IMG/VR virus record: IMGVR_UViG_3300017447_000001 | Coordinates: 1,227 to 65,226 of that record | Source of the DNA: a virus | Length of the DNA stretch: 64,000 bases | Reading direction: 5' to 3' (one strand) | Shown here: in pieces, positions 6,141-39,983 of the stretch | Layout: the number at the start of each line of letters is the position of its first letter | Position numbering within the stretch: the stretch's first letter is position 1 | Translations under genes and position numbers: made by a program | The notes under the pieces: model-generated | Seen by the model: the letters and a program-made list of their open reading frames with translations, nothing else | What the model was told of the DNA's origin: nothing | Databases searched by the model: none

Positions 6141-8675
6141 ATGGCAGTGCCTACCCAACCATTATATCCTAATCCGTTAGCAGCCGACAGCGACAAGGGA
6201 ACACAAGAGTTCGGCTTAAAGGTGATGAAGTCATGTTACAACAAGTGGGCTAACGGCTTCGGTAGTGAATCTTGGGTCAACAGGGTTAAGCGTTACGACA
6301 AAAATCGTAAATACGCCGCAGGCAAGCAGGATACCACCCAATACAGGGATGTGGTTAACGTGGAAGGATTACCTCCCTTGTTAAACATTGACTATACGCC
6401 ACTCCCCATTGCCATACCATTCCTTAACCGTATCAAAGACCGCTACATGCAACGCACCGAAAAAATCAGGTGCCAGTCGGTAGATCCGTTCTCACAGAGC
6501 AAAAAACGTAAGGCCAAAGAGGATGATAGGTTTAAGATGCAATACCGCGACCAGATACAGCAAGTACAACAGGAAGCGGGAATGGAGCTGGAGCAATTCA
6601 GCGAGGATGACCCGAAGAATGAACAGGAACTTGACATCAAGTATGGTTTCACCTACAAGGGAAAGGAAGAAATCATCATGGAGTTGGGAACTAAACTGGT
6701 GTTTGATGATAACGACTGGGATGATGTCATCAAAGAGAGATTGATATTTGATACCGCTACGTGCGGTTTTGCTGTTACACACACAGAGGTAGACGGCAGT
6801 GGTAAGATAAGAACACCTTTCATTAAACCCGAACGCTTCATCACATCCTATTCTGAGTTTAACGACTTCCGTGACTGGCAGTATCAAGGCCAGGTTCGTG
6901 ATATAAGCATCATGGAAATCAGGTTAAGGTTCCCTGGTAAAATATCAGAGGAAGCATTGTATAACCTTGCCAAGTCTAACGCCGGTAAGATGGGGAATCC
7001 TACATGGGGTGACTATTCATACACTAGTGACAGCACCAGAGCCATTGCAAGGCCATGGGATAACTATACGGTACAAGTAGTAGACTTGCATTACAAAACG
7101 CTCTATAACCTCAAATACGAGCGCAAACAGAACAGGTTTGGCGGAGAGGTATTAAAGAAAACAAATGTTAAAGAAGAGGGTAAAGAATATGAGGAATCTA
7201 AACCTTACTACGTGGCCTATCATGGCGTGTGGATAAAAGACACTGATATTTTATTGAAGTGGGAACTGGCAAGAAACATGCTGAAGCCTAACGATAATTT
7301 GACAGAGGTTTTTTCTCCATACTCGGTGTACATGCACGACAATAACCGTTGCACCAATACGCCGCTGATAGAAACGATGATACCAAGCATCGACCTGATG
7401 CAGAACATTCACCTAACTACGTTACGAATCATTGCTGCTACAGCACCAGATGGCGCTGATATTGATGTTTCTGGACTGTCAGAGATAGATATGGGTGCAG
7501 GTGTTGGTAATGTATCACCGTTACAATTGTACGCTATCTACCTGCAAACGGGTAACAGGTACTTTAAACGAATGGATGATGCGGATGAGAATCCAAACGG
7601 TCAGCCGCCTATCTCACCACAAAATCATCAGTACTCAAATAAACTCGAACAGTTAGACGCTAAGTGGCAGAGAGAATACGAAAAGCTCCAACAAATAGTA
7701 GGATCTTCAAACTTAGACGCAGGCTATATCACTAATCAAGCCACCTCAAACGTTACCTTACAAAGCGCTAAGACAATTTCTGCGAGTGCAACTAATTTTA
7801 TCTATAATGCCTACCTCGCGATAATGAAACGAACCGCTAAAAAGGTTCAGATAGCATTATGGGACAAGTTTGTATATGGCGAAAACTCCTACGATGGTTA
7901 TATTAAAGCTTTGGGCAAGGACAATATTGACTTCCTAAACTCGGAAGCGATGGACGATTTTGAGAAAACTAATTTTGATGTTGCTATCGAGGCTGTTGTG
8001 GATGATGGTGAAATGCAACGTCTGAACCAGAGGATTGAGATAGCGTTAAGCACCCAGCAAATCACCATTGAGGATTCTATTATGCTCGACATGATAGAAA
8101 ACCCCAAATATAAAGCTGCGATGCTTGCAGCAAGGGCCAAACAAAAAATGGCGGATGACATCAAGAAAGCCACCATCAACGCTCAAAACAACACCGAACA
8201 AGCTAAAGCCGCTGCTGCTGCGAAAGGTGAAGCCGACCTGCAAGTGGAACAACAGAAACATGCGAACGAAGTTGAACTACTCACCCTACGTTTACAATCC
8301 ATGCAGAAAGAGGAGTCATTCAAATTTAACGGCATTTTGAAAGCGAAAGTTGTTGATGCGATATTGGCAAAACCAAACGCTACCATAGAGCAGATACCTG
8401 ACTGGGTGTTCGATGGGTTGGAGTTAACCAATGACGCGCAGAAACAGATGATGATAGAGGCGTTACAAGCAATGCAACCAGCCCAGCAAGACCAACAGCA
8501 GCCACAGCAAAATGGTGCGCCCACAGACCCTAATACGCAGCAACAGGGGCAAATGATTAACGTGGTGATGCCTGACGGCCAGAGAGGCCAGATACCGGAA
8601 GAAAACTACGAAGCATTTGCCCAGCAATACCCAGATCACGAAGTAGAACAAGAGCAACAAGAACAGTATGCTTAA
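6141..8675 (+). CDS. Portal protein (large, crAss-like podovirus type)
   Basis: 844 aa helical protein right after terL, Q-rich C-terminal coiled coil; TACTTTTG promoter element at 6108-6115. Confidence 0.85.
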   Translation: MAVPTQPLYPNPLAADSDKGTQEFGLKVMKSCYNKWANGFGSESWVNRVKRYDKNRKYAAGKQDTTQYRDVVNVEGLPPLLNIDYTPLPIAIPFLNRIKDRYMQRTEKIRCQSVDPFSQSKKRKAKEDDRFKMQYRDQIQQVQQEAGMELEQFSEDDPKNEQELDIKYGFTYKGKEEIIMELGTKLVFDDNDWDDVIKERLIFDTATCGFAVTHTEVDGSGKIRTPFIKPERFITSYSEFNDFRDWQYQGQVRDISIMEIRLRFPGKISEEALYNLAKSNAGKMGNPTWGDYSYTSDSTRAIARPWDNYTVQVVDLHYKTLYNLKYERKQNRFGGEVLKKTNVKEEGKEYEESKPYYVAYHGVWIKDTDILLKWELARNMLKPNDNLTEVFSPYSVYMHDNNRCTNTPLIETMIPSIDLMQNIHLTTLRIIAATAPDGADIDVSGLSEIDMGAGVGNVSPLQLYAIYLQTGNRYFKRMDDADENPNGQPPISPQNHQYSNKLEQLDAKWQREYEKLQQIVGSSNLDAGYITNQATSNVTLQSAKTISASATNFIYNAYLAIMKRTAKKVQIALWDKFVYGENSYDGYIKALGKDNIDFLNSEAMDDFEKTNFDVAIEAVVDDGEMQRLNQRIEIALSTQQITIEDSIMLDMIENPKYKAAMLAARAKQKMADDIKKATINAQNNTEQAKAAAAAKGEADLQVEQQKHANEVELLTLRLQSMQKEESFKFNGILKAKVVDAILAKPNATIEQIPDWVFDGLELTNDAQKQMMIEALQAMQPAQQDQQQPQQNGAPTDPNTQQQGQMINVVMPDGQRGQIPEENYEAFAQQYPDHEVEQEQQEQYA

Positions 8676-10675: not shown

Positions 10676-12028
10676 ATGGCTATTCAATCTGCCCCAGGGC
10701 AAACCCCATCAGTTTACAGCACCCCGACCATCACCAGAGCCGGTACGCTGATTTCAGAGTTAAACATTGTTACCCCGCGCCCTTATGAGCGTTTCATGAA
10801 CAAGTTTAACTTCACTCCATACATGTTGTTAACGCAGATGCAGAACAACGGTATGATTAAGATAACCCAAGAGAACTCTAATAACAAGATGTTCTATCAC
10901 TATGAGGACTACGGTCGTCAGATGGGTTTCTTTGTTGCCGCAGGTACGGTAGCAGGTGCTAACGGTGCAGGTGTAACCATCACCCAAACCGCAGGTAGCC
11001 ACTCTGCCGCTGGTACACGTTCATTGCCTGAGATTGGTAAAATCTTTTATAACTCACGTACAGCGGTAGAAAGCCGCGTGTCTGCCGTTAATAAAACTGT
11101 TGCTGGCGCACACGTTGTAACCTTAACTCCCGTAGTAGCAACACAAAGCGCTGCTGTGAACGCTGGAGACGAGTTACTTGACCGTGGTTACAAATACGTT
11201 GGTGAGGCTTCTGATTATACAGGAACCAATGTTAAAAACATTGCCCGTTTCACCAACTACTGCTCACAACTGCGTAAAGACTTCCGCATCACCGACTTGG
11301 CTTTGGCCGAGCAAATCGACTTTGAGTATAACGGTCAACGTTTCTACTGGTATAAAGGCATGGATGACATGAACAACCAGTTAATCCAAGAGAAAGAGTT
11401 GATGCTGTTGGATTCAAACTTAGCAACCAACCTGCCATACGCAGAGAGCGGTACTGCTGGTCTGATTCAGCAAATCACCGCTAACGGTGTTACTGCTACT
11501 TATAATGATTTCAGCGCCACTCAAACCTTACAGGAAATTGAGCGTGTGTTAGATAACCAAGGCGCTCCAATGGAGTATGACTTCTTATCAGACACCGATC
11601 AGGATTTGGATATTCAGGATGCTATTGCTACTGAGTTCCCTAACGGTGCGATTGTGTACGATCAGAACAACCTGCGTCGTGACTTCAAATCGTTTAAGCC
11701 ATACACCCGTAAGTTTAACTTTGCGCGTTACACCCCGCTATCAGAGCGCCGTATGTACGGTTCATCTGGTACTGGCGCACGTAGCGGATTCGGTATCTTG
11801 GTCCCTAAGAACACTACCACTTTAGATGGTGACTCTCGTGTGAACGATGTGCCACGTTTGATTGTACGTTACCAAGAAATCCAAGGTAAACAACTGGTAG
11901 TTGGTGAATCAGGTTTACTATCAGCAAACGGTCAAAACACCAAAGCTGACCTGACCATTTCACAAGTTGGTTACTACGGCTTACAGGCAATTGGCGCAGA
12001 TCAGTTCATGATTCTGAAAAAAGCCTAA
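10676..12028 (+). CDS. Major capsid protein
   Basis: 450 aa, position after scaffold, followed by a strong terminator; size and style of crAss-like HK97-fold MCP. Confidence 0.85.
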   Translation: MAIQSAPGQTPSVYSTPTITRAGTLISELNIVTPRPYERFMNKFNFTPYMLLTQMQNNGMIKITQENSNNKMFYHYEDYGRQMGFFVAAGTVAGANGAGVTITQTAGSHSAAGTRSLPEIGKIFYNSRTAVESRVSAVNKTVAGAHVVTLTPVVATQSAAVNAGDELLDRGYKYVGEASDYTGTNVKNIARFTNYCSQLRKDFRITDLALAEQIDFEYNGQRFYWYKGMDDMNNQLIQEKELMLLDSNLATNLPYAESGTAGLIQQITANGVTATYNDFSATQTLQEIERVLDNQGAPMEYDFLSDTDQDLDIQDAIATEFPNGAIVYDQNNLRRDFKSFKPYTRKFNFARYTPLSERRMYGSSGTGARSGFGILVPKNTTTLDGDSRVNDVPRLIVRYQEIQGKQLVVGESGLLSANGQNTKADLTISQVGYYGLQAIGADQFMILKKA

Positions 12029-12121: not shown

Positions 12122-13006
12122 ATGCCAACATTAACAAAAGAAAAACCAGCCTCACTAATGCCCGAGGTGAAAACCTACGAGTACGAACTGTTAGAAACAC
12201 ACGCTCCCTACCAACCATCAGACCAAAACAATACAGCGTTAAAGCTGGGCAATGGTTTCCCGCCACTTTATTCTGTACCTAATTCAGGTGTAACACTCGA
12301 TGAAAAAAGTAACGCAAGAGCATGGCGCCTGATCCAAGGTCAACCATCCATTTGGAACGACGAGCAAAAAGGTCTGGATGAGATGAGCAAAAGACAAATT
12401 GATTCTTTACTATCACGCCCTGAGAACAAGCTAGAGTTCCGCAATGGTAAGCTAATGGTTAGAAGTGTCGAGAAGCTTAAAATAAAGGCGCTGGAGATGT
12501 CCGATTTGTTTGAGGGTAAGAAAGACCAGTATCAGGTTAAAAACCGCGTATACCGACTGAATAACCCTGACGAGATGGTTAACAAGGCGCTAGACAAACA
12601 AGCCAAGCAGTTTGAGGCGTTGAAGATAGCTTACGATGCTACAACCGAAGAAATGTTAGCCTATGCTCATGTTATAGGTATCAATACCGATGACCAGTCA
12701 GAAGCAGGGTTAAACAAAATAAAAAGCGCTTTCATTTCACAGGCAAGTTTAAATCCCGAGACTTTTGTGGAGTTATTTAGTAATCCTGCAAATAAGATAA
12801 AATTCACCATTAAAGACGCTATAGCAAAAGGCGTTATTTCATTCTCGCAGGTGCAGAACCGTTTAACATGGGTTCAGCAAGGAACTGAAATCATGCCGGT
12901 AAACGGTAATGGCGATGTGATTGGCGAGGTAGCCGACAAGGTGATTAAAAAAGATAAAGAAGCCGTAAAGATGTACGAGATGCTTCAAACACTGTTGGCT
13001 GAATAG
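12122..13006 (+). CDS. Hypothetical protein, probably head-module associated
   Basis: 294 aa from ATG 12122; position after MCP. Confidence 0.55.
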   Translation: MPTLTKEKPASLMPEVKTYEYELLETHAPYQPSDQNNTALKLGNGFPPLYSVPNSGVTLDEKSNARAWRLIQGQPSIWNDEQKGLDEMSKRQIDSLLSRPENKLEFRNGKLMVRSVEKLKIKALEMSDLFEGKKDQYQVKNRVYRLNNPDEMVNKALDKQAKQFEALKIAYDATTEEMLAYAHVIGINTDDQSEAGLNKIKSAFISQASLNPETFVELFSNPANKIKFTIKDAIAKGVISFSQVQNRLTWVQQGTEIMPVNGNGDVIGEVADKVIKKDKEAVKMYEMLQTLLAE

Positions 13007-31934: not shown

Positions 31935-32485
31935 TGCTAACAGTAGAACAATACGATATAGCCATTCTCAATGCAAGGCTTGCGATGGCGAGGTTAGTGA
32001 CCCGACAAATCAAAAAGGAACAAGAGGGAGGCGACCCCTGCTGGGATGAACCGATAGCTTACTACAAGAAGATACGGGCAGCAGGGGCCATGCGCCCCTT
32101 AATCAATACCATCTTAGGAAGTAAGTTATACTTTGATATGGTGAGATTATCAGGAACCAACTACAACAGTTCTCTCTCTGTGCCTGATGGTTTGACTATT
32201 ATCCCTGTAGGCTCCGTTTTAGCCCCTGTAGTGGCTCCAAGTGTTGATGCGGGTGCATTATCTATCCCGATACCAGAAGGCTCTCCTATACCCTTTAAAT
32301 ACGACTATACGGGCGCTATGAAGGTCAAGTATTATTTCGTAGAATATTTGAACGTGGACGGTAGTTATACACTGGCGAATACAATACAAACGTCAAGGGA
32401 TGATGATGAGTTCACAGTAGAGATAGCGATGGATGAAGATGGTAACTCAATTGGTAATTACAGATTAAACTTAGTACTGATATGA
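31934..32485 (+). CDS. Virion/fibre-associated hypothetical protein
   Basis: 183 aa, coupled to both neighbours. Confidence 0.5.
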   Translation: MLTVEQYDIAILNARLAMARLVTRQIKKEQEGGDPCWDEPIAYYKKIRAAGAMRPLINTILGSKLYFDMVRLSGTNYNSSLSVPDGLTIIPVGSVLAPVVAPSVDAGALSIPIPEGSPIPFKYDYTGAMKVKYYFVEYLNVDGSYTLANTIQTSRDDDEFTVEIAMDEDGNSIGNYRLNLVLI

Positions 32486-33165
32486 AGCATTTAAAAACAA
32501 TATACATTTTCCTTATCAGCTTCATGTCCGGCTGTATGAGTGTGATGGCGCAAGTCCAGCCTGACAGTGTAAGGTTAAGTGGCATGACAGATATACCAGG
32601 GGGCTTACAGTGGTCGTATAAGACCGTAGGAGGCACTGTACTGTACAACGGGTATAACCCTAAGACTGGGAAGTATAGTCTGTTCTACCCCGCCCAATGG
32701 ATCAATAGGAACGTACTGTTTAACAAGCCTGATTCGTCGGGCTTTTATCCGTTTGTAAGGGTATTTAAAGGAGAAGGGCCAAGAGACATCAAAACATTAC
32801 CTGATAATATCTTTGGGTATGTGGACAGGCGTTCTTTCCCTCAAAAGATAACAGGATTCCCAGACACCACAAGTTTACGGTTTAACTTTCTAAAGGTTGG
32901 AGACTTGCAGCGCGGGTATATGCTGGCGGGTACATGGGACAAAGACGAACTATTTTTCAGCAGGGGTTTTGCAGGAGACTACAGAGGGTGGCATCAGGTA
33001 GCGTTTCTGGATCAGCTAACCAACGTGGTACGTTTTGTTACCCCTCCGACAACAAAGACCTCTCCTGGTACAGCGGGAACGTTAGCGTACAACAATGGTT
33101 ACTTTTATATATGTGTAAGTACAAATCACTGGGAGCGTATGCCGTACGACCCAACAAACTGGTAG
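32482..33165 (+). CDS. Tail-fibre-like protein with predicted Sec signal peptide
   Basis: [25 protein letters not shown]-terminus; C-terminal [19 protein letters not shown]...W fibre motif. Confidence 0.6.
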
Positions 33166-33169
33166 TGAT

Positions 33170-35008
33170 ATGAAAAAGTTATTATTAATGACAGCCCTCT
33201 TGTGTGTACTGGTGAGGGTGAACTACGGACAGCAGGTACAGGCACAGTCTACCAGGCTGATGATTTATGTAAATGACGCCAAGGAGTTAGAATACATAGC
33301 ACCTGGAACAACACCAAACATACTAACCACGAGTGTTATTTACACGTACAAGACGTATGGTGCTGACGAGCAAAGGATATACTACTGGCGCACTGGGCCG
33401 ATAACTAATAGTAGTACAGAAAACTTAGCCACGATGTTAGCGAACCGTTTCTATATTGTTCCTAAAGATACGACAGGGGGTATAGTGAGGAATATGGCGG
33501 GTGTCGGCTACTGGTCAAGGGCAAGAACATTTATTGATGCCACATTTGTCAGGAACTTGGATAGTACATTGATTGCAAGAGGATTTCCTAAAGGAGTGAT
33601 ACCAACGAACAATCTACAATTAGTTAATGGCGCAGGTTACATCACGTTAAGTACAGGCAACCAGAACTACGTTAGACGAAGTGAGATTGGTACACTGACA
33701 GGGCCGCAAGGACAGCAAGGGCCACAGGGTGTAGTAGGGCCAACGGGTCAGACTGGAGCTACTGGAAGCCAAGGCCCAATTGGTTTAACTGGCCCACAAG
33801 GTCCGGCGGGTAAAGATGGCGCCAATGGTAAGGATGGTACAAATGGGAGCAACGGTATAGATGGCGCTGTAGGTGCTCAGGGTTTAAAGGGCGACCAAGG
33901 CTTACAGGGCATCCAAGGCCCGAAAGGAGACAAAGGTGATACTGGGACGACCGGATTGACGGGCGCTACTGGTACAACAGGTGCTACTGGATTGCAAGGC
34001 ATCAAAGGCGATAAGGGCGACACCGGGGCGCAAGGGCCGATTGGTTTAACAGGAGCAACAGGGCCTGCTGGGTCGCAAGGTATACAAGGCACAACAGGTC
34101 AAACGGGGGCTACAGGAAGCACAGGGCCACAAGGACCAGCAGGAACGCCAGCAACTCCCAATACAGCCTCTACGCCGCTTTTAATTACGGGAAACAATAT
34201 ATCTATCCAAACAGCATCAAGTACGCTTACAGGAGCTCTAACCGCGTCTGATTGGAACACGTTTAACAACAAGCTATCCGGTATCACTTCCGCACAGGTA
34301 GCTACAGCGCTTGGTTATACCCCTTACAATGGCACAACCAATCCTAATGGTTATCTAACCTCTGTACCGGTGACAAGTGTGTTTGGACGTACAGGCGCTA
34401 TAACAGCCCAGACAGGCGATTACAGCGCGTTTTACAAGCCTATAGGGTATACACCCACCTCAGCAGAGATAACGTCTTCACTGGGCTATACGCCCTATAA
34501 TTCGACCAACCCTGCTGGATATATCAGTAGCTATACTGAAACAGACCCGCTGTACACAACCAATGGTACTCCTAAGTCCAGAACAGTAGCTACAGGCTAT
34601 GGATTGACAGGAGGAGGTGATTTAAGCGCTAACAGGACGCTTTTGGCAGACACGGCAAGTGCAACAGGTTTAGTAAGTAAAACCCGCCTAAACGCCTCTT
34701 TGGCAGGTGTGGTGAAGAATGTTTTATTAGGAGGAGGTACAGCCTCGTTTACGACATCCTCTTTATTAGCGGGTGGTACAAATACGGTTACGGTTCCACT
34801 TAACCAGACATTCAGTGACACTAATTATCAGATTACTCAACCTATGATACTGGGCAGCGGTGGTGTGGTATTGCTGGGTGGCACGTTCACGCTGGTGAGC
34901 ATTGTAAAGAACACAACGAGCGTGGTAATAACGTTGCGGAATAATGCTTTACTTGCTTTGGCGGTCACGGGCACGATAGATATAGAAGCTATGAAGGTGG
35001 TTTTGTAG
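33170..35008 (+). CDS. Collagen-like fibre protein with predicted Sec signal peptide
   Basis: [23 protein letters not shown]-terminus; 50 uninterrupted Gly-X-Y triplets; two ALGYTPYN-type repeats. Confidence 0.8.
33701..34150 (+). repeat. (Gly-X-Y)50 collagen repeat
   Basis: Counted GPQ...GTP, 450 nt. Confidence 0.9.
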
Positions 35009-35028: not shown

Positions 35029-35058
35029 AAGCACTTCTCAAAAAGGAGTGCTTTTTTT
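35029..35058 (+). terminator. Intrinsic terminator ending the fibre operon
   Basis: AAGCACTTCT/GGAGTGCTT stem plus T-run; TATCTTTG promoter element follows at 35073-35080. Confidence 0.75.
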
Positions 35059-35085
35059 ATTTAAACGATTTCTATCTTTGGGGGC

Positions 35086-35208
35086 ATGAGACAGCAACCG
35101 ACAACAAAAGAGTTCATGGCGATCAGCGAAACCAATAAGGCTAAGATGAAATTGTTCTTTATAATCGCCATGGTACTCTTGTTCGGCTGTTTCAAAGTAA
35201 TCACTTAA
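35086..35208 (+). CDS. Small ORF consisting of a lipoprotein signal plus 6 residues (mature CFKVIT)
   Basis: Own translation: MRQQPTTKEFMAISETNKAKMKLFFIIAMVLLFGCFKVIT; alternative start ATG 35146; not in ORF track. Confidence 0.5.
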   Translation: MRQQPTTKEFMAISETNKAKMKLFFIIAMVLLFGCFKVIT

Positions 35209-35222
35209 ATTTCAAAAGGAAC

Positions 35223-35441
35223 ATGAAAAGCGTTAAAGAAATCGTTGCGGCTGTGCAGGCGTTAACGAAAGAGAAGAAACAAGAGTTATACTCTTTATTA
35301 GGCTTAGGCGGCACTGTAAATACACAGGGCGATGAAGATCCGACAGGTGATGATCCAGACACTGTGCCTGTGCCAGATGCTAATGGACGTTGTCCTGAAG
35401 GGTGGTATAACTCTGGTGGTGTTTGCAAGCGTGATTTGTAA
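35223..35441 (+). CDS. 72 aa peptide with possible Gly-Gly leader and C-terminal Cys pair
   Basis: ...KQELYSLLGLGG then acidic Pro-rich core ending CPEGWYNSGGVCKRDL. Confidence 0.6.
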   Translation: MKSVKEIVAAVQALTKEKKQELYSLLGLGGTVNTQGDEDPTGDDPDTVPVPDANGRCPEGWYNSGGVCKRDL

Positions 35442-35444
35442 GCC

Positions 35445-35828
35445 ATGAAGAACGCCAGGGCATTGATGATGGGTGTATTGCTTGTAGCCTATTGTATATT
35501 CTTTGTTTACTACCTCTCCAATTTCGAGCATCCTCTTGTTTCCTTTCATGTTATAAAAGGTTCTATTTATATAGCTTTTGCAGTGGTTATGTTAGCTACT
35601 TGGGTTGATGAGATAATAGGTTACACATCTTATATTCATCAATATGTCAACTGGCTAAATAAACTAACGCTTTCTGTTTCCTTTATTTTAATAGCACTAT
35701 ACCACTTTGATATTATAAGTGAAACCATTGATGAGTTTTATATTTTTATAGCCGCCATGGTAGTCTACACCATCATACTATTGTACAAGTGTTATAAAAA
35801 AGGCTTATTCAGCAAGGCACAAGTTTAA
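35445..35828 (+). CDS. Small membrane protein, about 4 TM helices
   Basis: Four hydrophobic stretches; terminator AGCCCC/GGGGCT+T6 at 35856-35881. Confidence 0.7.
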   Translation: MKNARALMMGVLLVAYCIFFVYYLSNFEHPLVSFHVIKGSIYIAFAVVMLATWVDEIIGYTSYIHQYVNWLNKLTLSVSFILIALYHFDIISETIDEFYIFIAAMVVYTIILLYKCYKKGLFSKAQV

Positions 35829-35983
35829 TTCTGTTTTCTTTCCATTCCCATGATTAGCCCCCGTAACAAGGGGCTTTTTTTGTTATAACCAAAAGTATGG
35901 CGCTTATAACCATTTAGAATTTGCGCCACGATGTAAGTTGAACTATACTTGCATTGGCAATACCGCCAAATAAACTCGACAAA

Positions 35984-36400
35984 ATGAAACTGGTAAATCC
36001 TAAAATTACTATTCTTATTGGTGTAGATTACACTACGATAGAACTGCATGATTCTTTATCTGGCGTAACGCTGGCTGATATTAAACTAACACCCGAACAG
36101 TTATCCTCTGCTTTGAGTAGGGTAGGTTATACCCCCTGTGAGGCTGAAGTACATAACCTTGATAAAGTTGGTAAAAAGCAAGAGATTAAAAAACACACAT
36201 TTGATATGCCTGAAAAGTATACTTACGAAGAAAGGAACGCTTTGGCGTATAAATTAGCTTTAGAGACATGTCCAGAAGGCTGGGAGCCTGACAATTACTT
36301 TAATAGTCAAGATTCGTTTTCTGGTAGTGGTGCTAATACAACGGCCAGATGTACTATTAGAAGATGGATAACACCAACCGATATTGACCCACTTAGTTAG
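35984..36400 (+). CDS. Hypothetical protein in its own promoter-terminator cassette
   Basis: TATACTTG variant element at 35945-35952; terminator at 36420-36453. Confidence 0.6.
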   Translation: MKLVNPKITILIGVDYTTIELHDSLSGVTLADIKLTPEQLSSALSRVGYTPCEAEVHNLDKVGKKQEIKKHTFDMPEKYTYEERNALAYKLALETCPEGWEPDNYFNSQDSFSGSGANTTARCTIRRWITPTDIDPLS

Positions 36401-36499
36401 TCGAGTTTCTATTTGGTTCAAGCCCTTTCGTCTATGCACGGAGGGGCTTTTTTATTTTGCCCTAATCTCCCTATATTTGGAGCATACAACAACCACCGC

Positions 36500-36568
36500 A
36501 TGAGAGAAGATACAAGATTAGTGGCACCAATTTGGCGGGTTAAGAACCAAAGGAAAGAAGCGCCATGA
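36500..36568 (+). CDS. Short leader ORF (22 aa) coupled to the next gene
   Basis: MREDTRLVAPIWRVKNQRKEAP; follows TATATTTG 36472-36479; ATGA overlap with 36565. Confidence 0.35.
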   Translation: MREDTRLVAPIWRVKNQRKEAP

Positions 36569-37152
36569 ATTTAGTGAGAAAGACCTACATATATATCCTG
36601 TTAACCATTGTCGTCAGTGCATTCTCGTGCATGATGCACAAAAGAGCTGTTGTCTCTGCTTCTCCGGCTCCCATCAATGGGGTTGTTGTCGAGAACACCA
36701 TTATTAAGCCCGTAGAGACAGTTAAACAACCTGCCCCTTATACATACCCATCGCCTGGATTTAAGCTCTACAGAGACAGTATAACAGCGTTCTGGCGTAA
36801 CGTGAGCAGCAAGTCAGATGACATCTCACTGAAACAGGACAGAATGTTATCCAAAATGGACACTGCGATGATGCGCCAGATGGTGAATAGTCAGAATATC
36901 AACAACTTGCTATATATATTGTCACAGCAGACTGTTGATATTAACCGTTTGAACAAGACAGTGGACGTGTTAAGCAAAAAAGCTACGGTTAGTAAAGAAA
37001 CCAAACAACAGGCGTTATTCAGCGGTGCGGTAGTAAAAAGCGCGGTGTATTTAAACTTTGCCCTGCTTATTATCATCATACTCATCAGTCTTTTTAATCT
37101 TATCTTTGCCCTCACAAAACGAACCACTAATCTCAAAACCGAACCTAAATAA
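36565..37152 (+). CDS. Lipoprotein with coiled coil and C-terminal TM helix (unimolecular-spanin-like topology)
   Basis: Lipobox-like VSAFS-C at residue 22; C-terminal LNFALLIIIILISLFNLIFAL. Confidence 0.55.
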   Translation: MNLVRKTYIYILLTIVVSAFSCMMHKRAVVSASPAPINGVVVENTIIKPVETVKQPAPYTYPSPGFKLYRDSITAFWRNVSSKSDDISLKQDRMLSKMDTAMMRQMVNSQNINNLLYILSQQTVDINRLNKTVDVLSKKATVSKETKQQALFSGAVVKSAVYLNFALLIIIILISLFNLIFALTKRTTNLKTEPK

Positions 37153-37463
37153 TGGAAGATAACAATGTTACCCCGCCTGCCGGAAGCGATTTCGCGAGAT
37201 GGTGGAATGTTGTTATAGTGGTACTAACAGGCATCCAGACTGTCTTTCTTAATGTTTTCTTAGCTTCTTCTTTAATATTCTTTGTAGTGACACGGGAGGC
37301 TGCACAATTGCAGATCACGCAGATCATTGGCGTCAGTAAGTATGCGATATTATTTTTAGCTTTACTCATCACCTGGATCGTAAGTGGCCTGATAAGTGGG
37401 ATAAAGGGTGTTACTACATTGGTGGCACTGGTACGTAAGGTTAAATTCAAAGACGATGAGTAA
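37152..37463 (+). CDS. Two-TM holin-like membrane protein
   Basis: Two long hydrophobic segments and a charged tail RKVKFKDDE. Confidence 0.5.
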   Translation: MEDNNVTPPAGSDFARWWNVVIVVLTGIQTVFLNVFLASSLIFFVVTREAAQLQITQIIGVSKYAILFLALLITWIVSGLISGIKGVTTLVALVRKVKFKDDE

Positions 37464-37836
37464 GTATATGAGCAGTGAATTTCTACATACATGCGGGGTA
37501 GGCATCTCTGTACTGAACGGGGCGTTGATGATATTGTGTCTGGTGATTGGCATTAAGGAGTTCATGCGCCTGTTAGCCCCTGAGACGAAAGACAACCGTT
37601 CGTTCCACTGGTTGATGCTTTCTTTGGTGCTATCGTTTCTGGTGGCAAATTACTACGCTTACCATCGGTTCTACGATGCGTGGGTGAAGGCTGAGGTGGT
37701 ACATATCCAGATGGATCTAATTATGATGGGTGTTAAAGACAGGGCAGCAATGGGCGTATGTGGTATTATTATGTACCTGCTGTCCTCCCGTTACAGGGGT
37801 AGCTGGTTTGAGGGTAAATACGAAGACGAGGACTAA
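37456..37836 (+). CDS. Small membrane protein, about 3 TM helices
   Basis: Start at ATG 37456 overlapping the previous gene; hydrophobic segments. Confidence 0.6.
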   Translation: MSKYMSSEFLHTCGVGISVLNGALMILCLVIGIKEFMRLLAPETKDNRSFHWLMLSLVLSFLVANYYAYHRFYDAWVKAEVVHIQMDLIMMGVKDRAAMGVCGIIMYLLSSRYRGSWFEGKYEDED

Positions 37837-37959
37837 CGTTATAACCAAATGTACTACATACCCTGTGTAGTGTTATAATAAATTGGAATAACCAAGTGAT
37901 ACTTTCTTGCTGTATGTTTGTAGTGTCAGCAATGGTGCTGATATAAAAATGTTGCAAAC

Positions 37960-38259
37960 ATGGATAAGCAAAGATTTCTTTTAACAAAAGAAGAATTAGA
38001 ACGTCAAATAGCAGATTTAAAGAATAGGTTAAATGACGCAAAAAATGAATACATCGAAAGTAATTCAAAATTTAAGCTGTTAGATCGTGTTATAGTCACA
38101 AACGGCAAGGGTCAACAAAGGGAAGTTTCTGTTTGTGGTTTTGAATTGAACTACAGTAATGATGTAACAATTAAGGCTAAGAAAATAAAAAAAGACGGTT
38201 CAGTGTCTGTTCAAAGTGATTACATTTGGCATAGTGAGAAGTTAACACTTAAAGATTAA
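37960..38259 (+). CDS. Hypothetical protein (coiled coil plus SH3/KOW-like beta part)
   Basis: 99 aa; own TATGTTTG element at 37913-37920. Confidence 0.6.
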   Translation: MDKQRFLLTKEELERQIADLKNRLNDAKNEYIESNSKFKLLDRVIVTNGKGQQREVSVCGFELNYSNDVTIKAKKIKKDGSVSVQSDYIWHSEKLTLKD

Positions 38260-38294
38260 CCCGTAGTTTCCCGCAACGTTCTGCGGGTTATGGG

Positions 38295-38363
38295 TCGCGA
38301 GTAACTCAATGGAAGAGTGGGGGAGGCATCTCACGGTTGCGGGTTCGACTCCCGCCTCGCGAA
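38295..38363 (+). tRNA. tRNA-like RNA with truncated anticodon arm (pseudo-tRNA or tRNA mimic)
   Basis: Acceptor TCGCGAG/CTCGCGA, D arm ACTC-AATGGAA-GAGT, T arm GCGGG-TTCGACT-CCCGC; only 20 nt between D and T arms (usually 23), no canonical 7 nt anticodon loop; no encoded CCA. Confidence 0.75.
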
Positions 38364-38446
38364 CTGTGCTGGTAAGAATCCAGCTGGTTGGCCGACAGTC
38401 TTTGTGGACTTTCGCATGGTTTTTTAAAAACCCACATGGCGTGGCT

Positions 38447-38481
38447 AAAAACTCCTGCATCGGAAACGACAGGGGTTTTTT
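38447..38481 (+). terminator. Terminator-like hairpin with GAAA tetraloop
   Basis: ACTCCTG-CA-TCG-GAAA-CGA-CAGGGGT plus T-run; TACTTTTG element at 38481-38488 follows. Confidence 0.65.
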
Positions 38482-38495
38482 ACTTTTGTACTATT

Positions 38496-38600
38496 ATGAA
38501 GATTGACAACAACCTGTACCCCAGTTGGTGCTTAGTTCCAATTTGTATTTTATTCGTACTTTTGAGTATGCTACAGGCATGTAATACTTACAAGATATGA
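38496..38600 (+). CDS. Small ORF: hydrophobic signal plus lipobox-like LQA-C and 6 residues (mature CNTYKI)
   Basis: MKIDNNLYPSWCLVPICILFVLLSMLQACNTYKI; ATGA overlap with the endolysin start. Confidence 0.5.
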   Translation: MKIDNNLYPSWCLVPICILFVLLSMLQACNTYKI

Positions 38601-39184
38601 AGTTCATATTAACACCAATACTAACAGCTTTCTATAACGAAGTTAGACCCATGTTTGGGGCTACACTATCACAAAAGGAATTTGATGGCATACATGCCAT
38701 CTTAGAGGCATTTAATGGCTACGATGTACGGTACGTAGCCTATGGTCTTGCGACAGCCTACCACGAGACCGCGAAGACCATGCAACCTATTGAAGAGTAT
38801 GGCAGAGGCAAAGGCCATGATTACGGGAAGAAATTGAAGATGTCGCGCAAGCCATATGACAAGCCTGACAAGTTATACTACGGCAGGGGACTGGTTCAGC
38901 TCACATGGTATGAAAACTATTCCGCCATGGGCAATGCAGCCCAGAAAGAGGGTAAGCCATGGGACCTGTTAAACAATCCTGAATTATTATTAACGATGGA
39001 GGTGAGTGCTTGGGTGTTGAAGAAAGGAATGTTAAACGGCATGTTCACCGGAAAGAAACTGTCAGACTATTTTAACGACCAAGTTGAACAACCCATTAAC
39101 GCAAGACGTATAATCAATGGAAAAGATCAAGCAGAGAGGATAGCAGGATATTATGAAATGTTCAAAAAAGCATTAATGAAATAA
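38597..39184 (+). CDS. Endolysin, glycoside hydrolase family 19-like
   Basis: AYGLATAYHET, YYGRGLVQLTW..NY, ARRIING motifs. Confidence 0.9.
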   Translation: MKFILTPILTAFYNEVRPMFGATLSQKEFDGIHAILEAFNGYDVRYVAYGLATAYHETAKTMQPIEEYGRGKGHDYGKKLKMSRKPYDKPDKLYYGRGLVQLTWYENYSAMGNAAQKEGKPWDLLNNPELLLTMEVSAWVLKKGMLNGMFTGKKLSDYFNDQVEQPINARRIINGKDQAERIAGYYEMFKKALMK

Positions 39185-39186
39185 AC

Positions 39187-39477
39187 ATGGAAACACCAGA
39201 AGAAAGACATTTCAGATCCATATTCACGTACATAGCCGCAATAACTGTTATTGTTTTACTTTATGTGATGTGTATAACCTTTATCCCGATACCGAAAGAG
39301 AACCAACGGTTCGTAGATATAGCACTGGCGTTCTTGTTAGGGTTCATATCCAGCAATAGTCAGTATTTAACAGGAGGTAATCCAAAAAAGACAGAGACAC
39401 CAAGCATTGTACAAACAGGAGACAGTCCAACAGCAACCACTACTACTACAGACCCACAAACAACAACAACGCCATGA
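39187..39477 (+). CDS. Holin
   Basis: Two TM helices, small size, directly after the endolysin. Confidence 0.65.
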   Translation: METPEERHFRSIFTYIAAITVIVLLYVMCITFIPIPKENQRFVDIALAFLLGFISSNSQYLTGGNPKKTETPSIVQTGDSPTATTTTTDPQTTTTP

Positions 39478-39983
39478 AACGACTCATTTTAAGCTCCGGT
39501 ATGACATTATTAATATTTACCGGATGCAATACCTATCAGAAGCAATTGAGGCGCACACGCGAGTTCTTAGAAGCCCATAAAGACGTTGCAGCACAGTTCT
39601 GTGCAGATAACTACGGAGTAGATACATTAAGAATAGTAAAAGGAGATACGGTGGTGAGATTAGATACGGTAACTATCAAGACGGATAGTGTTCCGTGTCC
39701 ACCGGCAGAGAAGGGTAAAACAGTTTATGTGAAGTGTCCTGACCAGAAGTATATCACCAGAACGGTAAGTAAAACAGATACGGTTTATCTGAGAGATAAT
39801 GCAGCCGTATCGGTTAGTAACGCTAAATACGTGGTAGTGAGGGATAGTTTAACTATCTACAAAGAGAAACTGAGGGTGAGTGAGGAAAAGAATAAAAACA
39901 AAACCAAGACCATCTGGATACTGGGAGGCTTTATAGCCCTAGTGGGATTAGGGACAGTGTTAAAGTTAACAGGAAGGATATAA
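39474..39983 (+). CDS. Spanin, probably unimolecular
   Basis: Lipobox IFTG-C at the N-terminus and C-terminal TM IWILGGFIALVGLGTVL. Confidence 0.7.
   Translation: MKRLILSSGMTLLIFTGCNTYQKQLRRTREFLEAHKDVAAQFCADNYGVDTLRIVKGDTVVRLDTVTIKTDSVPCPPAEKGKTVYVKCPDQKYITRTVSKTDTVYLRDNAAVSVSNAKYVVVRDSLTIYKEKLRVSEEKNKNKTKTIWILGGFIALVGLGTVLKLTGRI

Follow-up and report, generated by a model that had tools for sequence, protein, structure and literature searches.

We analysed two very short open reading frames (ORFs), ORF1 and ORF2, in a 64,000-nucleotide (nt) stretch of viral DNA, hereafter the window (positions 1,227 to 65,226 of IMG/VR virus record IMGVR_UViG_3300017447_000001). The record that holds the window is a complete phage genome of 73,224 bp with direct terminal repeats. 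A first-pass annotation had read both ORFs as precursors of lipidated hexapeptides. Their coordinates, their C-terminal ends (LFG-C-FKVIT-stop for ORF1 and LQA-C-NTYKI-stop for ORF2) and the promoter ahead of each are confirmed by the sequence, as is the ATGA overlap that couples ORF2 to the start of a GH19 endolysin gene at 38597. The features of the two loci are as follows, L numbers denoting members of a set of ~220 compared loci:

35029 to 35058, plus strand: hairpin resembling an intrinsic terminator, which closes the tail-fibre operon (L033 and L034 have a similar hairpin with a T-run in this position)
35073 to 35080, plus strand: −7 promoter element of the Bacteroidota type, from which the ORF1 ATG is 5 nt away (consensus in PMC6847099; element and spacing identical in L033 and L034, similar in L036 and L043)
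35086 to 35208, plus strand: ORF1, predicted single-pass membrane micro-protein of 40 amino acids (aa), with a polar N-region of 20 aa, a hydrophobic helix, a lipobox-like Cys35 (35188–35190) and a five-residue tail (homologs in L033, L034, L043, L036 and, partially, L037)
35087 to 35194, plus strand: predicted fold-back RNA hairpin over ORF1, in which the Gly-Cys-Phe codons pair with the region of the start codon
38447 to 38480, plus strand: terminator-like hairpin after a tRNA-like element (weak hairpin matches)
38481 to 38488, plus strand: −7 promoter element of the TAHHTTTG type, 7 nt before the ORF2 ATG
38496 to 38600, plus strand: ORF2, predicted single-pass micro-protein of 34 aa with Cys29 (38580–38582) and five further residues, ATGA-coupled to the endolysin (weak match to the leader of the L043 endolysin; variant in sequencing run X2)

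Both ORFs thus lie behind a terminator-like hairpin followed by a TAHHTTTG −7 element, with the ATG 5 nt (ORF1) or 7 nt (ORF2) further on. Since the distance from the −7 element to the start site is 4–5 nt in Flavobacterium johnsoniae (PMC6847099), both ORFs would be leaderless or nearly so. Note, as a caveat, that a second −7 element lies inside ORF2 (38557–38564). Both ORFs are predicted to encode single-helix membrane peptides and both are unannotated: nothing in Pfam, PHROG, NCBIfam or the ESM Atlas matched either of them, neither is recorded as a called gene, and ORF1 is overlooked by gene callers.

ORF1 is a real gene under protein-level selection. Compared with its counterpart in L034, a distant relative in which it is 50% identical, it differs far more at synonymous than at nonsynonymous sites (pS 0.76, pN 0.27, p = 6e-5), the mark of purifying selection. 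The constraint holds for the helix (p = 4e-4), in which synonymous sites are near-saturated, and also for the polar N-region taken by itself (p = 0.03), and shifted frames display no such signal. More specifically, the near-identical relative L033 differs by two synonymous changes only, L043 encodes a homolog of 39 aa that ends in LLSC plus six residues beginning with F-K (shuffle p 0.001), L036 one of 36 aa that ends in LLLC plus five (shuffle p 0.008), and L037 shows only the last codons, beside an adapter, with an end that reads TC plus five. The window and L043 have an L-L-x-x-C-F-K end in common, yet the four-helix membrane proteins encoded next to their ORF1s are only 23% identical. Met21 was rejected as the conserved start of ORF1, L034 having no Met at that position. 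Altogether, ORF1 represents a new, unannotated and selected micro-gene family in this phage clade.

The Cys at the end of the helix is kept in five phage lineages, three of which fit a lipobox, with a small residue at −1 (LFGC, LFGC and LLSC, as opposed to LLLC and xTC in the two homologs with Leu or Thr there). The stop is another matter: the first-pass annotation had both ORFs ending exactly five residues after a lipobox-like Cys, which is true of the window, whereas the tails of the homologs are 5, 5, 6 and 35 residues long, with variable sequences, and that of the ORF2 match is a single residue. The tail of 35 belongs to L034, where the reading frame continues, out of frame, into the following gene. 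Conservation of Cys and stop had been set beforehand as the test of the proposal; ORF1 keeps the Cys and not the stop, and ORF2 fails on this count. Selection bears on the N-region, the helix and the Cys-aromatic-Lys end of ORF1 rather than on a defined hexapeptide. Given a selected N-region and a tail that is not fixed, the product would more likely work through its N-region, helix and lipidated end, acting on the Cys-pair/4-TM module described below, than as a released hexapeptide.

Phe (ORF1) and Gln (ORF2) at −2 both fall outside the consensus lipobox [LVI][ASTVI][GAS]C (PMC6139136); in a crude pattern comparison over 84 lipoprotein-like ORFs of the compared loci, Phe at −2 occurs in 5/84, Gln at −2 in 2/84 and Leu at −1 in 3/84. 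The Sec/signal peptidase II layout consists of a positive n-region, a hydrophobic h-region and a Cys within about 15–35 residues (PMC12889592), and ORF1 has it, with three Lys, a hydrophobic helix and then Cys35; flanking charges favour an N-in orientation in 3/4 full ORF1 sequences. Given the small −1 residues in three lineages and the Cys at the helix end, lipidation of ORF1 by Lgt is plausible, with about even odds, and, since LspA accepts a synthetic Förster resonance energy transfer (FRET) lipopeptide in vitro (PMC6952399), subsequent cleavage would be possible. For ORF2, neither a conserved lipobox nor an N-in preference was found (LQAC here, IKAC in its sole and weak match, and AMC, GLC or no Cys in other ORFs of the same slot), so it is probably not lipidated. 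By the features that define single-pass small membrane proteins (fewer than 50 aa, one helix, coding selection), ORF1 has all three and ORF2 has the helix. Under the same pattern, none of the ~22 other promoter-led hydrophobic ORFs of 22–60 aa in 2.6 Mb of Bacteroidota-rich loci combines a lipobox with a short tail, and in shuffles a tail of at most 10 residues arises in 2.3% and one of exactly 5 in 0.2%.

The first-pass annotation held that Lgt and LspA make lipidated hexapeptides that are themselves the working products, as a signal, a Lol/LspA decoy or a lysis modulator. This explanation is tenable for ORF1 only, and even there we find it doubtful. It draws on the lipobox-compatible Cys with a tail of 5–6 residues starting F-K in the window, L033 and L043, on the enrichment over shuffles, with a lipobox-like Cys in both slots of the window and of L043, on the in vitro activity of LspA mentioned above and on the existence in Bacteroidota of ribosomal lipopeptides made by this very pathway, the diacylglycerol-bearing ribosomally synthesized and post-translationally modified peptides (DAG-RiPPs; PMC13056109); besides, a decoy would need no fixed tail sequence. 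However, the tail varies in length and sequence, the −1 residue is Leu or Thr in L036 and L037, the N-region that LspA would discard is under selection, and in the complete 73-kb genome we found no match to PF18768 (the only RRNPP model tried), PF05114 (MNIO) or PF04055 (radical SAM). As for ORF2, the residue at −2 is Gln, or Lys in its match, where a single residue follows the Cys, and the tail is altered in a close relative. A dedicated lipo-hexapeptide signal is unlikely, because related phages do not keep the six-residue tail. Likewise doubtful is a version in which ORF1 is a near-minimal phage lipoprotein that Lgt and LspA would turn into an acylated peptide of 6–7 residues and a retained signal peptide of 34 residues, its expression gated by the hairpin, and which would serve either as a membrane ligand of the neighbouring module or as a decoy in the maturation or trafficking of lipoproteins. 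What survives of the original proposal is a conserved Cys at the end of the ORF1 helix and a plausible lipidation there; the position of the stop is not conserved and the lipobox of ORF2 is not a feature of the clade. ORF1 and ORF2 are not a matched hexapeptide system.

The hairpin over ORF1 has a predicted stability of −36.2 kcal/mol (z −3.9 against shuffles, z −3.0 against synonymous recoding). All of its pairs are kept in L033, where the change that touches it preserves a G-U pair, and 21/37 in L034; no hairpin stability of this kind was seen in L043 or L036. Lying over a leaderless start codon, this structure may limit translation of ORF1, in the window lineage, to nascent transcripts. If the ORFs were mainly cis-acting leaders, loading ribosomes without a leader and, for ORF1, gating the downstream genes through the hairpin, then the peptides would be tolerated by-products. 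Start sites at or near +1 are in line with this idea, as are the ATGA/TGATG coupling in ORF2, L043 and L036, the occurrence of non-hydrophobic coupled leaders (one of 22 aa at 36500 and another ahead of the L044 endolysin) and the strength of the hairpin against synonymous recoding, with the G-U pair retained despite the change in L033. We nevertheless regard it as unlikely: ORF1 is under amino-acid-level selection while the synonymous sites of its helix are near-saturated, and the hairpin, partly kept in L034, is not seen in L043 and L036, which still retain helix and Cys. Since that stability is missing there, the RNA hairpin cannot explain the protein conservation in these two phages, and it was rejected as the sole cause of the conservation of ORF1. 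An arrest leader of the SecM/MifM type was also rejected: with a tail of five residues, the helix would still be in the ribosome tunnel at termination, too close to the stop for force sensing by that established mechanism.

ORF1 heads a unit with two further genes, and ORF2 leads the endolysin cassette. The neighbours are:

35223 to 35441, plus strand: Cys-pair peptide of 72 aa, without a signal sequence and with a variable C-terminal loop
35445 to 35828, plus strand: four-helix (4-TM) membrane protein of 127 aa, partner of the Cys-pair peptide across the clade
36565 to 37152, plus strand: protein with a lipoprotein signal plus a helix at the C-terminus, a u-spanin-like architecture (similar genes in L036 and L043)
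38597 to 39184, plus strand: GH19 endolysin without a signal peptide (Pfam PF00182; phrog_181)
39187 to 39477, plus strand: two-helix holin-like protein (weak PHROG matches of unknown function; similar endolysin-adjacent genes in L218, L219 and L307)
39474 to 39983, plus strand: u-spanin-like lipoprotein with a lipoprotein signal plus a helix at the C-terminus (ortholog in L042; architecture as in PMC6139136)

The Cys-pair peptide and the 4-TM protein have no family matches in Pfam, PHROG or NCBIfam, and the model of the latter has no significant fold match. The pair recurs over the clade (window 35223–35828; L041, L042, L218, L304, L305 and L307), mostly followed by holin-like and lipoprotein genes; a holin-like gene and the gene of a receiver-domain-like protein come after it in L304 and L305. 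The Cys loop of the Cys-pair peptide varies between close relatives, and a Gly-Gly motif noticed in this peptide by the first-pass annotation is not kept in several homologs. ORF1 would be an optional accessory of this module, because it is missing ahead of the same pair in L041, L042, L218, L304 and L305, where another gene or a promoter directly precedes it. The frame offset from ORF1 to the Cys-pair gene is +2, +1, +1, +2 and +2 across lineages and differs even between the window and the near-identical L033; a programmed frameshift joining the two into a larger, o-spanin-like lipoprotein is therefore excluded.

The same offsets bear on the idea that the ORFs are remnants of longer lipoprotein genes, reduced to a signal peptide and the first residues after it, which in the case of ORF2 would have been a spanin-like gene once upstream of the endolysin. 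Such an origin, to be considered mostly for ORF2, is quite unlikely. In other phages of Bacteroidota (L010, L013, L082, L086, L089 and L121), GH19 endolysin genes do have a spanin-like lipoprotein gene immediately upstream, the end of ORF2 resembles the start of the spanin (protein shuffle p 0.003), and the 26-aa signal-peptide-like ORF that occupies the ORF1 slot in L218 resembles the starts of neighbouring secreted proteins. Yet no full-length homolog of either ORF was found in the ~220 loci, which argues that ORF1 is not a recent remnant; ORF1 is also short and selected in distant relatives, its offsets do not fit a split lipoprotein, and the likeness of ORF2 to the spanin at the DNA level is slight (p about 0.05), with C-N/C-Y-T starts common among these spanins. 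Note that the ORF of L218 (reverse strand, 8221–8301) has a signal-peptidase-I-like signal, after which there are only seven residues, the first being Gln; it may be what is left of a secreted gene or else a parallel micro-precursor.

The first-pass annotation had also drawn attention to the CNTY start shared by ORF2 and the mature spanin. It is indeed present in the window, where it directly follows the signal peptide of the lipoprotein at 39474, but it is not conserved: a related phage in run X2 has CNTC instead of CNTY in ORF2 (one contig, depth 3.3) and the spanin ortholog of L042 starts with CTNQ. The echo is most likely a coincidence on a common spanin start, and derivation of ORF2 from a duplicated spanin 5′ end was rejected on the DNA likeness given above. 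Two separate genes of u-spanin architecture (36565–37152 and 39474–39983) occur in this one genome.

The slot of ORF2 was compared in the five close endolysin relatives L042 to L046. L043 has a promoter-led, coupled single-helix ORF of 30 aa that ends in IKAC plus one residue (the weak match, p 0.005–0.02), L044 has a polar ORF of 22 aa, and no micro-ORF was found in the endolysin slot of L042 or L045/L046. Flanking charges are neutral for ORF2 and lean towards C-in for its L043 match, the Cys of which would then face the cytoplasm. In distant phages, one to several single-helix ORFs of 23–44 aa, mostly without a lipobox, precede endolysins of the GH19, GH24-like or GH25-like types, and they end in AMC+8, GLC+10 or without a terminal Cys. 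Strings of such ORFs, often ATGA-coupled, lie upstream of unrelated endolysin types in L218 (reverse complement 12212–12622), L304 (9195–9528), L219 (reverse complement 11699–11874), L012 (3912–3995) and L041 (1416–1502). Phage lysis regions are also a source of examples of single-pass small membrane proteins, and, within the loosely defined class of membrane peptides coupled to endolysins, ORF2 is an ordinary case.

Several other elements of the region deserve mention. A third promoter-led micro-ORF (36500–36568; 22 aa, non-hydrophobic), identical in L038, is ATGA-coupled to the lipoprotein gene at 36565. Between two terminators, a 148-aa gene with its own flanks (35868–36442) appears to be a mobile insertion, because L038 and a contig of run X2 skip it (573 nt). 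An 11-nt motif present at 35883–35893 and 37839–37849, and nowhere else in the window, reads on the reverse strand as a −7 element directed back into the membrane cassettes; it also stands ahead of the two inserted soluble genes. Upstream of ORF2, in a unit of its own, lies a tRNA-like element (38295–38363; 44 bits to Rfam RF00005); its anticodon arm is irregular, and ARAGORN does not call it. Signal peptides of the Sec type are found clade-wide on tail-fibre-like and other late genes (window 32482–35008; L034, L042, L043, L044, L218, L219 and L304), and the residue that follows the predicted cut is often Gln.

The reading that we favour, with a probability of roughly 0.55, is that both ORFs encode single-pass inner-membrane micro-proteins of a late envelope/lysis island and also start translation of their operons. 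For translation, topology, lipidation, partners and the role in lysis, we infer the following from the sequence. Each ORF, as a leaderless first cistron, would load ribosomes and hand them to the next gene, and each product would insert into the inner membrane as an optional accessory of its unit. The ORF1 product is probably oriented N-in and would expose its Cys on the periplasmic side, within reach of diacylglyceryl transfer by Lgt and perhaps of cleavage by LspA; its most likely role is to modulate the Cys-pair/4-TM module, and in the window lineage the fold-back hairpin probably restricts its translation. For ORF2, the most likely role is that of a translational leader of the endolysin and a holin-accessory or antiholin-like peptide, which would tune endolysin expression or do no more than lead it. 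Four points weigh against this picture. First, a lipobox with a short tail is found in 4/13 micro-ORFs (both slots in the window and L043), as against 2.3% by chance, an excess that points to genuine selection for lipidation in the lineages of the window and L043. Second, the 35-residue tail of L034 is seen in one contig, where an error or an allele in decay could account for it. Third, the homology of ORF2 consists of a single weak match. Fourth, it is the position of the genes, together with coupling, that points to a role in lysis.

The clade consists of uncultured phages of Bacteroidota. The terminase and the portal have matches among PHROG families, and the closest cultured terminases, all distant, are those of Cellulophaga phi38:1-like and Flavobacterium elemo phages; beyond these, the cassette has no match among cultured phages. 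The best genomic relatives of the endolysin were found in Mucilaginibacter, the window promoters are of the TAHHTTTG type of Bacteroidota, a phylum without Shine–Dalgarno sites, and a sequencing run that contains the stretch, and may be where it came from, is a phyllosphere metagenome. Taken together, these points make a member of the Sphingobacteriaceae the probable host, and the phage probably infects Mucilaginibacter-like bacteria. Run X1, from which this DNA may originate, does not count as independent. Profiles of the Cys-pair peptide and the 4-TM protein had no hit in the 401 genomes searched (the family of a Mucilaginibacter genome). The sequencing runs listed with the stretch include no RNA run.

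The first-pass annotation knew of no comparable phage system. A phage-encoded hexapeptide is in fact known, although it is unlipidated: in arbitrium, Bacillus SPbeta-group phages secrete a 43-aa precursor, AimP; Opp re-imports its C-terminal hexapeptide, which binds AimR, an RRNPP regulator (PMC6458997). The resemblance lies in a phage micro-gene of about 40 codons with a hexapeptide-sized C-terminal end; here the tail length is not fixed (5, 6 or 35), PF18768, the RRNPP model tried, has no match in the genome, the host is diderm, and ORF1 has the Cys-pair peptide and the 4-TM protein as neighbours. ORF1 and ORF2 are not an arbitrium system. Nor are they DAG-RiPPs, which are likewise short ribosomal precursors with a lipoprotein signal in Bacteroidota and are processed by the host lipoprotein pathway; in those such as DybA/DybH, the lipobox is canonical and invariant, the CPxCGxG core is conserved and an MNIO enzyme does the tailoring (PMC13056109). 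None of these features is present here, and the tails of ORF1 vary in sequence and length. Phage o-spanins (Rz1 type) and u-spanins (T1 gp11) are lipoproteins encoded in or near lysis cassettes, and non-canonical lipoboxes such as AWAC, LNGC and FVGC are known among them (PMC6139136); they have, however, a periplasmic domain of tens of residues instead of five residues after the Cys. The two ORFs are not spanins, because they have no such domain and u-spanin-like genes are already present at 36565 and 39474. In enterococci, the signal-peptide part of a lipoprotein precursor is the functional product (cCF10) and a micro-gene on a mobile element encodes a peptide of seven residues (iCF10; PMC7117660). 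A functional signal-peptide half is here an analogy only: that system is Gram-positive, dependent on Eep and read by PrgZ/PrgX receptors, none of which was identified here. Finally, bacterial and phage single-pass small membrane proteins of fewer than 50 aa (PMC7549839, PMC12648545) resemble the two ORFs in size, single helix, lack of a catalytic domain, neglect by gene callers and location beside membrane-protein genes; ORF1 adds a conserved terminal Cys, and neither ORF has a sequence match to a named family. By analogy, the two ORFs would work most like these proteins, ORF1 being possibly a minimal lipoprotein.

Lipidation, if it occurs, would place ORF1 among the shortest lipoproteins in nature and make it an easy probe both of the minimal substrate of Lgt, LspA and Lol in Bacteroidota and of whether phages interfere with host lipoprotein maturation. 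Otherwise, the finding amounts to a new family of small membrane proteins of phages, a modest result. In either case, the clade packs its lysis region with membrane peptides of 23–44 aa and a Cys-pair/4-TM module, which stands beside a receiver-like protein in two relatives, making this region an unexplored candidate for lysis control.

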